This document shows positions 6,633 to 55,198 of a stretch of 64,000 nucleotides of DNA, in pieces (the stretch's first letter is position 1; every line of letters begins with the position of its first letter). The stretch is from Chloroflexota bacterium (GTDB lineage Bacteria > Chloroflexota > UBA11872 > VXOZ01). The stretch is taken from NCBI GenBank assembly GCA_964291655.2, contig OZ219802.1, forward strand, positions 768,001 through 832,000, written 5' to 3'. The notes under the pieces are model-generated. The model searched no databases. It saw only the letters and a list, made by a program, of their open reading frames with translations, and was not told the origin of the DNA. A program made the translations under genes and the position numbers.

Positions 6633-7190
6633 ATGGCAACCATGGCTAGCTCTACACCGGCAATCAAGTTCACGTATGCGGACTACCGCAACACGCCGGA
6701 TGATAAGCGCTACGAGTTGTTGGACGGAGACTTGATAGTGACGCCAGCGCCCGGAACGGCACATCAGAGGGCATTGCGTAAACTCACCATTCTGCTCGGG
6801 CTGACAGTTGAACGTACCGGCGTTGGCGAGGTCTTCATTGCGCCCTGCGACGTGGTGCTCTCGGATACGGACGTTGTACAGCCAGACTTGTTGTTCGTCT
6901 CCAAAGAACGGGAACACATCATTACCGACGAAAACATCCAAGGCGCGCCCGACCTTGTTGTTGAAATCCTCTCTCCTTCCACGGCAGAACGGGGCCAAAC
7001 CTTCAAACGCTCGCTTTACGCCAAACACGGCGTGAAGGAATACTGGCTGGTGGACACCGATGCCAAGACGGTGACGGTCCTCCTGCGGAATCCCCAAGGC
7101 TTTGCGGTGGCAGGCGTGTGCGGTGAAGGCCAGGCCCTGGATTCACCGACCTTTGAGAAGTTTATCATCAAACCCGACGAAATCTTCTAG
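6633..7190 (+). CDS. Uma2 family putative endonuclease, copy 2
   Basis: Same motifs; 625 bp offset from copy 1 (alternative start 6642). Confidence 0.9.
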   Translation: MATMASSTPAIKFTYADYRNTPDDKRYELLDGDLIVTPAPGTAHQRALRKLTILLGLTVERTGVGEVFIAPCDVVLSDTDVVQPDLLFVSKEREHIITDENIQGAPDLVVEILSPSTAERGQTFKRSLYAKHGVKEYWLVDTDAKTVTVLLRNPQGFAVAGVCGEGQALDSPTFEKFIIKPDEIF

Positions 7191-7257: not shown

Positions 7258-7815
7258 GTGGCAACCATGGCTAGCTCTACACCGGCAATCAAGTTCACGT
7301 ACCGGGACTACCGAAACACGCCGGATGACAAGCGCTACGAGTTGTTGGATGGAGACTTAATTGTGGTTCCAGCGCCCAAAGAGATCCATCAAAGAGTCCT
7401 GATGAATCTTTCCTATTTGCTGTTTCAGTCGGTCAAGCGTAGCGGTGCCGGACATGTCTATGCTGCCCCATTTGACGTCGTGCTTTCCAACACGGACGTC
7501 GTTCAGCCCGATCTCCTTTACATCTCCAACGAGCGGGCGCACAAAATTACTGACGAAAACATCCAAGGCGCGCCCGATTTGGTTGTCGAAATCCTCTCTC
7601 CTTCCACGGCAGAACGGGACCAAACCTTCAAACGCTCGCTTTACGCCAAACACGGCGTGAAAGAGTATTGGCTGGTGGATACTGATGCCAAGACGGTGAC
7701 AGTGCTGACTCTGGAAAGTGACGGCTATGCGTTAGTCGCCGTCTATGGAGAGGGGCAAGCCCTGTCCTCGCCCACCCTGGCGGGATTCACTGTCGATACG
7801 GCCGAAGTCTTCTGA
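7258..7815 (+). CDS. Uma2 family putative endonuclease, copy 3
   Basis: Same motifs; 625 bp offset from copy 2 (alternative start 7267). Confidence 0.9.
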   Translation: MATMASSTPAIKFTYRDYRNTPDDKRYELLDGDLIVVPAPKEIHQRVLMNLSYLLFQSVKRSGAGHVYAAPFDVVLSNTDVVQPDLLYISNERAHKITDENIQGAPDLVVEILSPSTAERDQTFKRSLYAKHGVKEYWLVDTDAKTVTVLTLESDGYALVAVYGEGQALSSPTLAGFTVDTAEVF

Positions 7816-52162: not shown

Positions 52163-52323
52163 AGCCACCCACTGGCGTATCCGAGAGCGCAGATACGCAA
52201 ACTGCCAGACTGACTTTGGCAAAACCGTCCCAATTGTAGGCGCGGTTACAAAAAAACGTCTCTACTTTCGTTATACTGGGCATGGATAGGGGAGTAGTGC
52301 GTTGCGTGGTAAGGGCTTATCCT

Positions 52324-53079
52324 ATGCTTGTTGACGTTGGCATTGCATTTGGCGCCGGCATTCTCTCATTTTTATCGCCCTGTTTTCTCCCCCTGGTACC
52401 GGCATATCTTGTCTATCTCGGTGGCCGCCACGTCAACGCGGTCCGCCACGAAAAGTCTGCCCAACGGGCCGTCCTCATCAACGCGCTGGCCTTTATACTG
52501 GGCTTCGGCACCATCTTCGTCGCCCTCGGCATTGCTATCACGTTTGTTGGCCTTGCCTTTCAGCAAGGTCTTCCCACGATGCGGCTTGTCGGTGGCGCGC
52601 TTCTCGTCATCTTTGGGCTTAGCTTTCTGGGATTCCTGCGTATTCCGTGGCTCCAGCAGATTTTGCAACGGGAAGTCTCGCTCCGCAATACACCGCTGGG
52701 CCGCATAGACACGGAGAAAACCGGTCCGATCACATCTTTCCTGATCGGCCTGGTCTTTGGCACCGGCTGGACGCCGTGCGTGGGGCCGATTCTGGGCGCC
52801 ATTTTGCTCCAGGCATCCGGCGCTGACACGGTGGCCCGCGGCGGAATCTTGCTGGCAATCTACGCATTGGGAATGGGCATCCCGTTTCTCGCGATGGCCG
52901 CCGCCGTGGAGCGCGCTGCATCCCTCATGAACTGGCTCAAGTCCCACATGCTCGTAGTTGAGCGCACAAGCGGAGTCTTCTTGATCTTGATGGGAATTGC
53001 TGTGGCAACGAATTTCCTGGCGATGCTGTCTGGAGTTCTCGGCTTTTTCTCATTAGAAATCTTGGCATTTGAGCGTTAG
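52324..53079 (+). CDS. ccdA: CcdA/DsbD-type transmembrane electron transporter
   Basis: SFLSPCFLPLVPAY and WTPCVGPILG with both redox Cys; multiple TM helices. Confidence 0.92.
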   Translation: MLVDVGIAFGAGILSFLSPCFLPLVPAYLVYLGGRHVNAVRHEKSAQRAVLINALAFILGFGTIFVALGIAITFVGLAFQQGLPTMRLVGGALLVIFGLSFLGFLRIPWLQQILQREVSLRNTPLGRIDTEKTGPITSFLIGLVFGTGWTPCVGPILGAILLQASGADTVARGGILLAIYALGMGIPFLAMAAAVERAASLMNWLKSHMLVVERTSGVFLILMGIAVATNFLAMLSGVLGFFSLEILAFER

Positions 53080-53318
53080 CATGAGTGATGGCGACAGGAA
53101 GATTGTTACACTCGATCCTTGGGGCTCGCCTTATGCTTCGAAGTGCGAGCACGGGTTGCGGCAAAGCATCCGATCCAACGCCGTCGCCGCAGCTCATGGC
53201 AGCGCCGAAAACGAAGGCCGTCTCGCGATGACGGCGAGTTGAAGCAGGCAGATTCCCAAGCATTTCGGTTTTTGCGGGGATAGTATTCGGGGATAGTACC
53301 AGCAAAGGGAGGAGACCT

Positions 53319-53984
53319 ATGCGACGACGTTCTGTATGCGCATTGCTGTTCAGCGGCGCGTCCGTAGCCGCGCTCGCGGCGTGCGGCGGCGGCTCAACGC
53401 TGCTCGATACGCAAGAGGAGCCCGCGCCGGCGAAGGAAGAGGCCAAGGCCGAGCCGACCGCTGCTCCGAAGGAAGCTGAGGCAACGGCTGAGCCCGAAGC
53501 GAAGGCGGAGCCTGAGCCGACGGCAGCGCCCGAACTCGACCTGCCCAACCTTGGCAAGGCGCCGGAGATTACGCTCACGCAATGGCTCAATTCCGATGCC
53601 ATTACGTTGTCCAGCTTGGAAGGCAAGGCCTCTGCCTTGATTGTCTTCTGGACCTACACCTGACCGGTGTGCCGCGGCGAAATCCCCAGTTGGGTGGATA
53701 TCCAGAACACGCTCGTTGACGACAGTTTCAAGCTCATCAGCATCCACTTCCCGGCCTTGGGCGCATCCACGGACGTGAGCGTCATTGCCGAGAAGTCCGC
53801 GGAGCTCAATGTCAATTTCCCGGTCGCAATCGATAATGACCTGTCAGCCTGGAACGACTACGGCAACAATGCCTGGCCGGTTGCCTACGCAGTCGATAAG
53901 CAAGGTGACATTCGCTTCAAGCAGGTTGGCGCCGGTATCGACTCAATCCTTGAAGTGATTGAAAAGATGAAGGCTGCGGGCTAG
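53319..53984 (+). CDS. Probable selenocysteine-containing TlpA/ResA-like redoxin lipoprotein (UxxC), copy A
   Basis: ORFs 53319..53663 and 53667..53984 are in frame across TGA 53661-53663, giving FWTYT-U-PVC-RGEIP; RR signal, LAAC lipobox, thioredoxin-fold tail (FPVAID, WP, VDKQG.IR). Confidence 0.88.
53682..53699 (+). promoter_or_regulatory. Putative bacterial SECIS hairpin, copy A
   Basis: ATCCCC-AGTTG-GG(T)GGAT stem with a bulged U and a G in the apical loop, 18 nt after TGA. Confidence 0.7.
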
Positions 53985-54020
53985 CGTACCTGCTGATTCT
54001 TAGACATCGGTCGAAACAAG

Positions 54021-54065
54021 CAAGCCGTCTGCGGTGTGCTCATCACACCGCAGACGGCTTGTTTT
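54021..54065 (+). terminator. Intrinsic terminator after redoxin A
   Basis: 18-bp perfect stem CAAGCCGTCTGCGGTGTG/CACACCGCAGACGGCTTG followed by TTTT. Confidence 0.8.
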
Positions 54066-54174
54066 AAGTGTGCGGCAAGCCCACATGCCGAATTCTTGCC
54101 GCTGCCTCTTAAAAGCAGTGACCTGCGCCTGCAATGTGCGTCCTCGAACGACCGAGGAGCTTCTGCTTCAATAG

Positions 54175-54214
54175 ATACAGTACCCAGTGTTCATGTGAAC
54201 ACTGGGTACTGTAT
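54175..54214. repeat. 40-bp near-perfect palindrome (terminator or protein-binding site)
   Basis: ATACAGTACCCAGTGTTCA-tg-TGAACACTGGGTACTGTAT. Confidence 0.7.
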
Positions 54215-54272
54215 TCGTGTCTCTGCGACAGCTTTGCCGGAATCTAGAACAAGCGGATAGCGACACTGCCGC

Positions 54273-54944
54273 TTAGCCCAACTCCTTGAGTTGCTTCACG
54301 GCATCAACCACCAGTTCGAAGTTGCCGCCGCCGAACTTTGCAAAGCGTATATTGCCCTGCCGATCAATGCCGTAGAATGCCGGCCACGTGCGGGTGCCAT
54401 AGGCGTTCCAAAGCACCTCATCGTTGTCGACAACCACCGGATAGTTGACGCCGAGGGCGTCGGCCCGCTCCTTAATGCCGCTGATGTCTCGGGAAGAACC
54501 GGCGTGCGGAAAGTGCACGGAGATCAGCTTGAAGCGGTCATCGTGGTAGGTATTGAAGAGATCCACCAAACTGGGGATTTCGCTGCGGCAGACCGGTCAG
54601 GTGTACGTCCAAAACACAATCATGGCAGCGGCCTTGCCTTCCAAACTTGCCATGGTGATGGGCTCGGAGTTGAACCAGCCGGTGAGCGTAATTTCCGGCG
54701 CCTTGCCAAGATTGGGCATATCGAGCGTGGGTGCTGCGGTGGCGGCCGGCTGTGCCTCCGTTTTGCTATCAGCCTTTGCTTCTTCTTGCGCCGGAGCGGC
54801 TGTTGGCTGCGCCGCGGAATCTTGCGCAGAGCTTGCGGGTGCCTCGTCCTCGGTATCCAGCAATGAAGACCCACCGCCACATGCTGCGAGCGCGGCTGCG
54901 GACGTGCTGCTTAACAGTAGAGAGCAAACTGAACGTCGTCGCAT
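54273..54944 (-). CDS. Probable selenocysteine-containing TlpA/ResA-like redoxin lipoprotein (UxxC), copy B
   Basis: In-frame TGA at 54597-54599 gives FWTYT-U-PVC-RSEIP; start ATG 54944 (MRRRSVC...LAACGGG) with AAGGTGAGG RBS; paralogous to copy A. Confidence 0.88.
54561..54578 (-). promoter_or_regulatory. Putative bacterial SECIS hairpin, copy B
   Basis: ATCCCC-AGTTT-GG(T)GGAT, 18 nt after TGA; differs from copy A only at one loop base. Confidence 0.7.
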
Positions 54945-55198
54945 GCCTATCCTCACCTTTCTCTTTCGTGTAGGTTTGCTGCCGCAATTCCTCGACGCAC
55001 CTCGTACCGGAAAACTGCTCTGCCGGCACAATCGCGCTTGGCGTTGCGACTATCGCTCTTCGCTTACTTCTATCCTAAACGAGTACAAGATGGAACTTCC
55101 ACCCCCACTCCCCCCCTACACCTTGACGACAAACAATTGCGAATTACCTGTGATAGTCTTGTCCAAATAGCAAGCGTAGCGTCCAGGAGTCCCGCACA

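Follow-up and report, generated by a model that had tools for sequence, protein, structure and literature searches.

A CcdA-type electron carrier and a pair of probable selenocysteine-containing, DipZ-type redoxins in a Chloroflexota lineage

Two redoxin genes interrupted by TGA at the same codon

A 64,000-nt stretch of the genome of a Chloroflexota bacterium (contig OZ219802.1, positions 768,001-832,000; hereafter the window, whose positions are used as coordinates throughout) contains a gene for a CcdA-type membrane protein followed by two convergent redoxin genes, here called A and B. Each redoxin gene has an in-frame TGA at the codon that corresponds to the first cysteine of the thioredoxin CxxC motif. 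It is highly probable, in our judgement, that CcdA and the two redoxins constitute a split DipZ-like extracytoplasmic reducing module in which both redoxins would be lipid-anchored thioredoxin-fold proteins containing selenocysteine (Sec, U). The genes and the parts of them on which this reading depends are as follows.

52324..53079, + strand: CcdA-type membrane thiol-disulfide electron carrier (Pfam DsbD_TM match)
53319..53984, + strand: redoxin A, with lipoprotein signal, Pro/Ala/Glu-rich linker and DipZ-type thioredoxin-fold domain, putative motif U115-P-V-C
53319..53384, + strand: predicted signal peptide of redoxin A, with RR pair and lipobox L-A-A-C (from the sequence)
53661..53663, + strand: in-frame TGA of redoxin A, putatively read as selenocysteine U115 (aligns with the first Cys of the CxxC of homologs)
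54273..54944, - strand: redoxin B, paralog of A with the same architecture and convergent with it, putative motif U116-P-V-C
54879..54944, - strand: predicted signal peptide of redoxin B, with RR pair and lipobox L-A-A-C (from the sequence)
54597..54599, - strand: in-frame TGA of redoxin B, putatively read as selenocysteine U116

Under translation table 11 each redoxin gene is split into two open reading frames (ORFs). For redoxin A these are 53319-53663 (+, 114 aa, ending in VFWTYT) and 53667-53984 (+, 105 aa, with a GTG start), and for redoxin B they are 54597-55031 (-, 144 aa, also ending in VFWTYT, or 115 aa if counted from the ATG at 54944) and 54273-54569 (-, 98 aa). The raw sequence reads ACC TGA CCG GTG TGC at 53658-53672 (+) and ACC TGA CCG GTC TGC on the minus strand, where the TGA lies at 54599-54597. 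When TGA is translated as U, the ORF pairs fuse into proteins of 221 (A) and 223 (B) residues that share the motif FWTYT-U-PVC and are 58% identical over their full length. Both begin with MRRRSVC...AALAAC; about 50 residues rich in Pro, Ala and Glu come next, and then an AhpC-TSA/Redoxin domain (Pfam E-values of 7e-11 and 8e-15 for the two proteins). The bacterial lipobox motif is [LVI][ASTVI][GAS]C, and the LAAC of A and B conforms to it as a sequence motif; R3, R4, L19, A20, A21 and C22 were invariant in 30 aligned sequences.

The longest ORF for CcdA begins at 52282 (265 aa, ending at 53079, +), and the alignment with its relatives starts near the ATG at 52324. It matched Pfam DsbD_TM with an E-value of 4.4e-19 and a score of 69.1 bits, against a gathering threshold of 27.1. 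Several segments of the protein are hydrophobic, and it has only two cysteines, C20 in LSPCFLP and C152 in GWTPCVGP, each in a P-C motif within a hydrophobic segment. An earlier examination of this DNA that used the letters alone (the sequence-only reading) had reported the TGA at the first CxxC cysteine of both paralogs with the frame open on either side, the RR and lipobox signals on both redoxins, and the retention of both redox cysteines by CcdA, and all of these were confirmed.

Two ORFs on the strands opposite to the redoxin genes, 53394-53747 (-, 117 aa) and 54553-55170 (+, 205 aa), are shadow frames of the G+C-rich sequence encoding the Ala/Pro-rich linkers. Selection of the longest ORF favoured these shadow frames over the genuine, split redoxin genes.

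The TGA is conserved and replaces the first catalytic cysteine of homologs

A genome scan with one genome per species identified 14 syntenic loci, all of them in Chloroflexota metagenome-assembled genomes (MAGs), most of which are closed chromosomes 3.3-3.7 Mb in size. The redoxins occur as a convergent pair in 12 of these loci and as a single copy in the other two (L012 and L013), so that the window and these loci together provide 28 family genes from 15 genomes. TGA was present at this codon in 28 of the 28 genes, and none had TGC or TGT. The reading frame was intact on both sides of the TGA in 27 genes, the exception being paralog B of locus L008, and no frameshift was found after the TGA in any of the 28. 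Pairwise dN/dS was 0.03-0.07 across the 42 codons that precede the TGA and 0.13-0.24 downstream of it, with dS of about 0.7-1.2 overall. These low values on both sides of the TGA indicate that both halves are translated and under selection. They agree with the argument of the sequence-only reading that two independent nonsense mutations at one codon would be unlikely and, judged from these comparisons, the conserved TGA is not accidental.

The exceptional gene in L008 (L008:11285-11360, -) has a second in-frame TGA, 25 codons upstream of the conserved one, which arose by a TGG-to-TGA change at the invariant Trp of ...LTG-W-FNSEP. This additional TGA, present in 1 of the 28 genes, either reflects an error of assembly or is a genuine nonsense mutation through which that species has lost paralog B. 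It provides a contrast that shows how a non-conserved nonsense change looks in this redoxin family.

Relatives of the redoxins have a cysteine where the window genes have TGA. A HMMER search identified 17199 relatives at E<=0.001, and motifs were counted in 149 further representatives (P0056-P0204) among the best 150 of these. The motif at the place of the TGA in those 149 was C-x-x-C, most often C-I-N-C (101), C-V-N-C (15) or C-Y-N-C (13). In an alignment of 38 sequences, with C written for U in both window proteins, C116 and C119 were invariant. A word-based search for relatives of near length returned 11 proteins, and the full-length ones among them were no more than 34% identical and all had Cys (FWTYTC[IV]NC). 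Alignment with these homologs showed the TGA codon to be equivalent to the first catalytic Cys of CxxC; a Trp at this position had been named beforehand as an outcome that would speak against Sec, and the residue found was Cys.

The best relative of solved structure was the C-terminal part of DipZ of Mycobacterium tuberculosis (2hyx, 5cyy; E 1e-26, residues 74-219), in which FWAYSCINC of 2hyx aligns to FWTYT-U-PVC of the redoxin B query. Weaker sequence matches were to structures of the Etrx/ResA type (E 1e-9). An AlphaFold model of redoxin B had a mean pLDDT of 83.9, and above 90 over the thioredoxin domain, and places U116 between a strand (106-112) and a helix (117-133), where proteins with a thioredoxin fold have their nucleophilic Cys. 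The best match of the model in the Protein Data Bank (PDB) was again DipZ (5cyy/2hyx; rmsd 1.3 A over 150 columns, 35% identity), followed by YkuV, ResA and pneumococcal Etrx2. The identity of the thioredoxin domain of redoxin A rests on the match of redoxin B to 2hyx together with the 58% identity between the two paralogs.

CcdA as the probable partner of the two redoxins

The CcdA gene lies directly upstream of a redoxin gene in 14 of 14 loci, with the CcdA proteins 83-95% identical and dS about 1, and the gene order MurF-Ddl-Prs-CcdA-redoxin-(redoxin)-GH29-like was kept in all of them. In L012, about 3.4 kb of other DNA (L012:10633-14056) replaces paralog B before the GH29-like gene, and in L013 the GH29-like gene follows directly after the single redoxin.

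Fusions of the same two domains were common among the longer homologs. In 18 of the 24 long homologs (337-750 aa) from the best 150 relatives listed, a DsbD_TM domain is N-terminal to the redoxin domain, and most of these proteins also have the Thioredoxin_10 domain of DipZ. The best match, P0056 (623 aa, E 2.4e-67), has DsbD_TM and two tandem redoxin domains, is all-Cys and has FWTFGCYNC in both redoxin domains. By its predicted domain content P0056 is a fused, all-Cys counterpart of the arrangement of CcdA, A and B. The fusion of a CcdA domain to two redoxins argues that CcdA passes electrons to both redoxins in the window, where direct transfer is what we infer. With DipZ as the nearest structure, CcdA adjoining the redoxins and the frequent fusions, the split DipZ-like relay that the sequence-only reading had put forward gained support.

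Two types of paralog can be told apart, an A-type with ...CRGE[IV]PSWVDIQ and a B-type with ...CR[SG]E[IV]PSLVDLF, and both occur together in the window and in 11 of the 14 loci; L014 has two B-like copies. The retention of both types suggests that they have distinct clients. It is also in keeping with the earlier proposal of two specialised outputs as far as the maintenance of two paralogs is concerned, while their specialisation is still something that we only infer.

An alternative that we consider unlikely is that A and B are selenoproteins other than CcdA-fed reductants, either extracytoplasmic enzymes of a peroxidase-like or oxidase type or proteins with another electron donor, with CcdA serving another client. 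Selenocysteine is typical of peroxide-reducing enzymes, which counts for this explanation, as do the best Pfam match of the redoxins (AhpC-TSA) and the U-P-V-C motif, which is unlike the C-I-N-C of DipZ-type relatives. Some features of the locus also weigh against a CcdA-fed module: the 239-nt spacer between CcdA and redoxin A is poorly conserved, and no substrate or partner gene (cytochrome c maturation, Msr) was found among the window ORFs. The regions upstream of both redoxin genes were likewise poorly conserved, and no leader element was seen in them. Against this alternative stand the adjacency of ccdA and redoxin in every locus over a dS of about 1, the DsbD_TM fusions, one of them with two redoxin domains, and the fact that the closest structures (DipZ, YkuV, ResA and Etrx2) are those of reductants.

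A candidate SECIS hairpin after the UGA

If the UGA codons of the CcdA-partnered redoxins are read as Sec, a bacterial selenocysteine insertion sequence (bSECIS) would be expected shortly after each of them, as the sequence-only reading had anticipated. A covarying hairpin with bSECIS geometry was found after the TGA in both genes.

53679..53702, + strand: bSECIS-like hairpin of redoxin A, GAAAUCCCC-AGUUG-GGUGGAUAUC (loop starting 24 nt after the UGA)
54558..54581, - strand: bSECIS-like hairpin of redoxin B, GAAAUCCCC-AGUUU-GGUGGAUCUC

The same hairpin can form in all 28 genes, at columns 19-42 of the alignment, numbered from the first base of the UGA, and it lies inside the coding sequence of the active-site helix alpha-1. 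Its consensus is G-A-(A)-[A/G]-U-C-C-C-C, a loop of AGUU[G/U], and G-G-(U)-G-G-A-[U/C]-(N)-U-C. Over the 8 pairs and 23 distinct rows of the alignment, 184 of 184 cells were paired, compared with 37-55% when the 3' partners were slid by 1-3 columns. Pair 22-39 was A-U in 15 and G-C in 8 of the 23 distinct rows, with no row unpaired and none with G-U, and one other pair showed a single change from G-C to G-U. In terms of codons, ATC (Ile) pairs with GAT in 19 genes and GTC (Val) pairs with GAC in the other 9 of the 28, such that the 3' change of pair 22-39 is synonymous. A tree of the remaining gene sequence, with the hairpin excluded, requires at least 4 changes in the state of this pair. The GAA, CCC, AGT and GTG codons of the hairpin were invariant in all 28 genes, despite their two-, four- and six-fold degeneracy, and the 8-codon window with the lowest synonymous diversity of the whole gene was at +3..+13, an equally low window occurring in 3 of 20000 permutations.

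The published bSECIS model has a loop of 3-9 nt, an upper stem of 4-16 bp, a G in the first two loop positions, a spacing of 16-37 nt between the UGA and the loop, and a free energy limit of -7.5 kcal/mol, according to the available part of its description (PMC13188914). The hairpin here has a 5-nt loop with G at loop position 2 followed by U, a spacing of 24 nt, and a stem of 6 bp that contains a bulged U and is extended by another 2 bp, which is within the published range. As predicted from sequence, the hairpin after the UGA fits a bSECIS.

The free energy of the hairpin and several other observations count against this assignment. The 24-nt core has -5.8 (A) and -6.3 (B) kcal/mol, weaker than the -7.5 limit, and only the G-C variants of the core, at -7.6 to -8.1 kcal/mol, pass it; folds of 55 nt reach -8.7 to -15.3 kcal/mol, but do so via variable outer pairings. 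The 70 nt after each TGA were no more stable than shuffled sequences (z +1.30 and -0.11). Only 1 of the 8 pairs covaries, 6 never vary and are uninformative either way, and a change on the 5' side of the pair that covaries also exchanges Ile for Val in a conserved helix. Rfam returned no SECIS or other relevant family, either for the whole window at the gathering threshold or for 53200-55000 at E<=10. In the same vein, no match to selA, selB or selD was found with family models among the 49 long ORFs of the 64-kb window, and tRNA scans found no tRNA, hence no tRNA-Sec, in the window and no tRNA in the 14 related loci. Because the core is weak and the 70-nt folds were no better than shuffles, the claim of a SECIS rests on covariation and synonymous constraint, and not on energy.

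How the UGA would be decoded

TGA is a functional stop codon in this genome: of the 28 window ORFs that matched curated families, 5 end in TGA (Der, PlsY, GatB, DnaE and one other). In the case of Der, GatB and DnaE, the family profile matches the protein up to the last few residues before the terminal TGA, and there was no in-frame TGA in the 11366 codons of the 28 family-matched ORFs. A genome-wide reassignment of TGA (codes 4/25) was considered and rejected on these two counts. Among the same 28 ORFs TGA was the rarest stop (5) despite the window's G+C content of 59%, with TAA at 10 and TAG the commonest at 13.

A search for other TGA-split genes in the window gave 146 candidates, 18 of them mostly outside the chosen ORFs, and besides the redoxins and the shadow frames none was convincing. 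Those other candidates were short and mostly lower in third-position G+C content (GC3).

The use of Sec is established in the phylum. In the available parts of the respective papers, 3 selenoproteins are given for Chloroflexi in a survey from 2006 (PMC1794560), 46-49 selenoprotein genes are given for Dehalococcoidia MAGs (PMC13326102) and tRNA-Sec is described in Chloroflexi (PMC5389517). By analogy, Sec would be plausible in the present lineage, although its use in the phylum is no proof for the lineage itself.

A second alternative, which we rate as very improbable, is that the UGA is read through without Sec, for instance by a SelB*-dependent tRNA-Cys(UCA) or by a near-cognate tRNA stimulated by the hairpin, with the result that Cys or Trp is placed in the protein. 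A conserved TGA with a hairpin would appear identical under such read-through, and none of the Sec machinery was found in the window and no tRNA in the related loci. Moreover, other phyla are known to have a SelC* tRNA-Cys with a UCA anticodon, which can insert Cys at opal codons. However, the available part of that work reports selC* in Firmicutes, Thermodesulfobacteria, Nitrospirae and Proteobacteria, always together with a full Sec apparatus, and not in Chloroflexi, the phylum for which it does report tRNA-Sec (PMC5389517). The geometry of the hairpin is of the bSECIS type, as far as that model is described in the available text (PMC13188914). Finally, if the residue were Cys, an ordinary Cys codon would specify it more simply, but 0 of the 28 genes use one.

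Half-proteins in the databases

The sequence-only reading, in which UGA-encoded Sec was proposed for both redoxins, had expected standard annotation to treat the genes as pseudogenes. This proved incorrect in its detail, as gene callers deposit the two parts as separate half-ORFs (named 'hypothetical protein' in the few names retrieved). A search among shorter proteins returned 42 matches, all of them half-proteins, comprising 33 N-terminal and 9 C-terminal halves that ranged from 100% to 39% identity to the query, some of them from contigs of up to 6.7 Mb. Thirty-two of the 33 N-terminal halves end exactly at FWTYT, and the remaining one, P0055, ends at FWTFG. P0055 (101 aa, from a contig of 1061 bases) is the N-terminal half of a distant redoxin ending in ...VEFWTFG, where its Cys-containing relatives have FWTFG-C-I-N-C. 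It may represent an independent change from Cys to Sec in the FWTFG subfamily.

The deposited halves might be taken at face value, with each redoxin consisting of two genes, one for a small secreted N-terminal lipoprotein and one for a separately initiated C-terminal protein. Gene callers do predict the half-proteins and give the C-terminal halves starts of their own. We consider this explanation extremely unlikely. The division would fall within the CxxC motif of what was modelled, with pLDDT above 90, as one undivided thioredoxin-fold domain. In addition, the start of the C-terminal half is not conserved: the callers chose GTG (MCRGE...), ATG (MDIQ...) or other codons, and codon +2 after the TGA was GTG, GTC, GTT, ATC or ATT in the 28 genes.

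That the redoxin genes are pseudogenes or the product of sequencing errors, with two independent nonsense hits at the same codon and only truncated, inactive products, is scarcely credible even though table 11 splits both genes and the extra TGG-to-TGA change in L008 indicates that real nonsense changes occur in the family, since the TGA is common to all 28 genes of 15 independent assemblies, the region after it has the low dN/dS given above at a dS of about 0.7-1.2 and no frameshifts, and synonymous constraint with a compensatory pair right after the TGA would be unexpected in decaying DNA.

Other features of the window

Two perfect palindromes lie in the 288-nt gap that separates the convergent redoxin genes, and both gave spurious miRNA-like matches in Rfam.

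54021..54061, no strand assigned: 18-bp palindromic hairpin between the convergent genes, likely a terminator (terminator scan, 18 pairs)
54175..54214, no strand assigned: second perfect 18-bp palindromic hairpin, likely the terminator of redoxin B (found as a hairpin; absent from the terminator-scan list)

Elsewhere in the window, two adjacent ORFs of 185 aa each, 6633-7190 and 7258-7815 (+), had no NCBIfam match and may be tandem paralogs.

Relationship to known systems

In DipZ of M. tuberculosis a CcdA-like membrane part and a thioredoxin domain form one polypeptide. The CcdA-redoxin module resembles DipZ in its best sequence and fold matches, in the context F-W-x-Y-x-[C/U]-x-x-C and in the partnership with a CcdA-type membrane domain. 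It differs in being split into separate genes, in the duplication of the redoxin, with each copy having its own lipoprotein signal and linker, and in the U-P-V-C motif compared with C-I-N-C of DipZ. The window redoxins also lack the C-terminal Thioredoxin_10 domain (no match to PF17991). Given the separate genes and the missing PF17991 domain, we propose that the module works like a split DipZ, yet is not a DipZ.

In pneumococcus, CcdA proteins pass electrons to two paralogous surface lipoprotein thioredoxins, Etrx1 and Etrx2, which reduce MsrAB2. The pneumococcal CcdA-Etrx system (2yp6, 4hqz, 4hqs) and the CcdA-ResA/StoA systems of Bacillus are similar to the window redoxins in comprising anchored extracytoplasmic reductants with a thioredoxin fold (fold E-values of 6e-12 to 2e-11). 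They differ in that the Etrx, ResA and StoA proteins are all-Cys, share 20-24% identity with the window redoxins and have known clients, whereas the window redoxins would have Sec as the nucleophile.

Selenoproteins with UxxC and the domains PF00578/PF08534 have been catalogued since 2006-2008. In the available parts of the catalogues these include a Prx-like thiol:disulfide oxidoreductase, Prx-like 1 and 3, a Redoxin family protein, a thiol:disulfide interchange protein and a UGC-containing TlpA family (PMC1794560, PMC2398784, PMC13188914). Redoxins A and B share with the catalogued Prx-like and Redoxin families the same Pfam domains, the replacement of the first Cys by Sec, and prediction from a TGA with a bSECIS. 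Compared by description only, they differ in that the available parts of the catalogues mention no CcdA partner, lipoprotein anchor or convergent paralog pair for those families. Since UxxC redoxin selenoproteins have long been known, the window pair is a well-supported further example of an established kind of selenoprotein. The DipZ-type FWTYT-U-PVC clade itself may already be listed in the selenoprotein catalogues or BSepDB; a literature search found no paper linking DipZ-, CcdA- or DsbD-fed redoxins with Sec beyond catalogue tables.

NCBIfam NF041054, a ResA-like WAxxUGC selenoprotein family, is likewise an extracytoplasmic thioredoxin-fold selenoprotein and gave weak matches to the two redoxins (E 2.9e-8 and 2e-6). 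Membership of that family was rejected, as the scores of 33.4 and 27.4 bits compare with a cut-off of 300, the motif is WAxxUGC and not FWTYTUPVC, and the model has a length of 354 aa.

Proposed mechanism and significance

In the mechanism that we propose, the first, nucleophilic residue of the CxxC motif of each redoxin would be Sec encoded by UGA, with the small in-frame hairpin, whose loop is 24 nt downstream of the UGA, specifying the insertion of Sec, and the codon would be decoded by SelB with Sec-tRNA(Sec). The redoxins would then be exported and lipidated at the invariant cysteine of LAAC. CcdA would draw electrons from cytoplasmic thioredoxin and reduce the U-x-x-C selenenylsulfide of both redoxins, and A and B would in turn reduce different extracytoplasmic substrates.

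As a broader and distinctly more tentative proposal, it is possible that this Chloroflexota lineage has fixed Sec, with no Cys variant among the 28 genes, as the nucleophile of surface lipoprotein redoxins of the DipZ/CcdA pathway, using an unusually small SECIS (about 24 nt, -6 kcal/mol) set within the active-site helix, and paralogs with distinct clients.

The reading of A and B as UGA-containing redoxins would rescue two real genes per genome from four meaningless half-ORFs in at least 15 Chloroflexota species, and would extend the UxxC selenoproteins by a clade of DipZ-type lipoproteins that have CcdA as a partner. The hairpin would be a compact, comparatively validated example of a bSECIS that is weaker than the usual energy threshold, and could be useful for tuning selenoprotein finders: both window genes would be lost if the core hairpin were filtered at -7.5 kcal/mol, because their cores fall short of that value. 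If the proposal is correct, an all-Cys membrane carrier keeps paired, lipid-anchored extracytoplasmic selenoproteins reduced, giving envelope redox homeostasis a selenium-dependent branch, and selenium supply would affect the maintenance of envelope thiol redox in this lineage.

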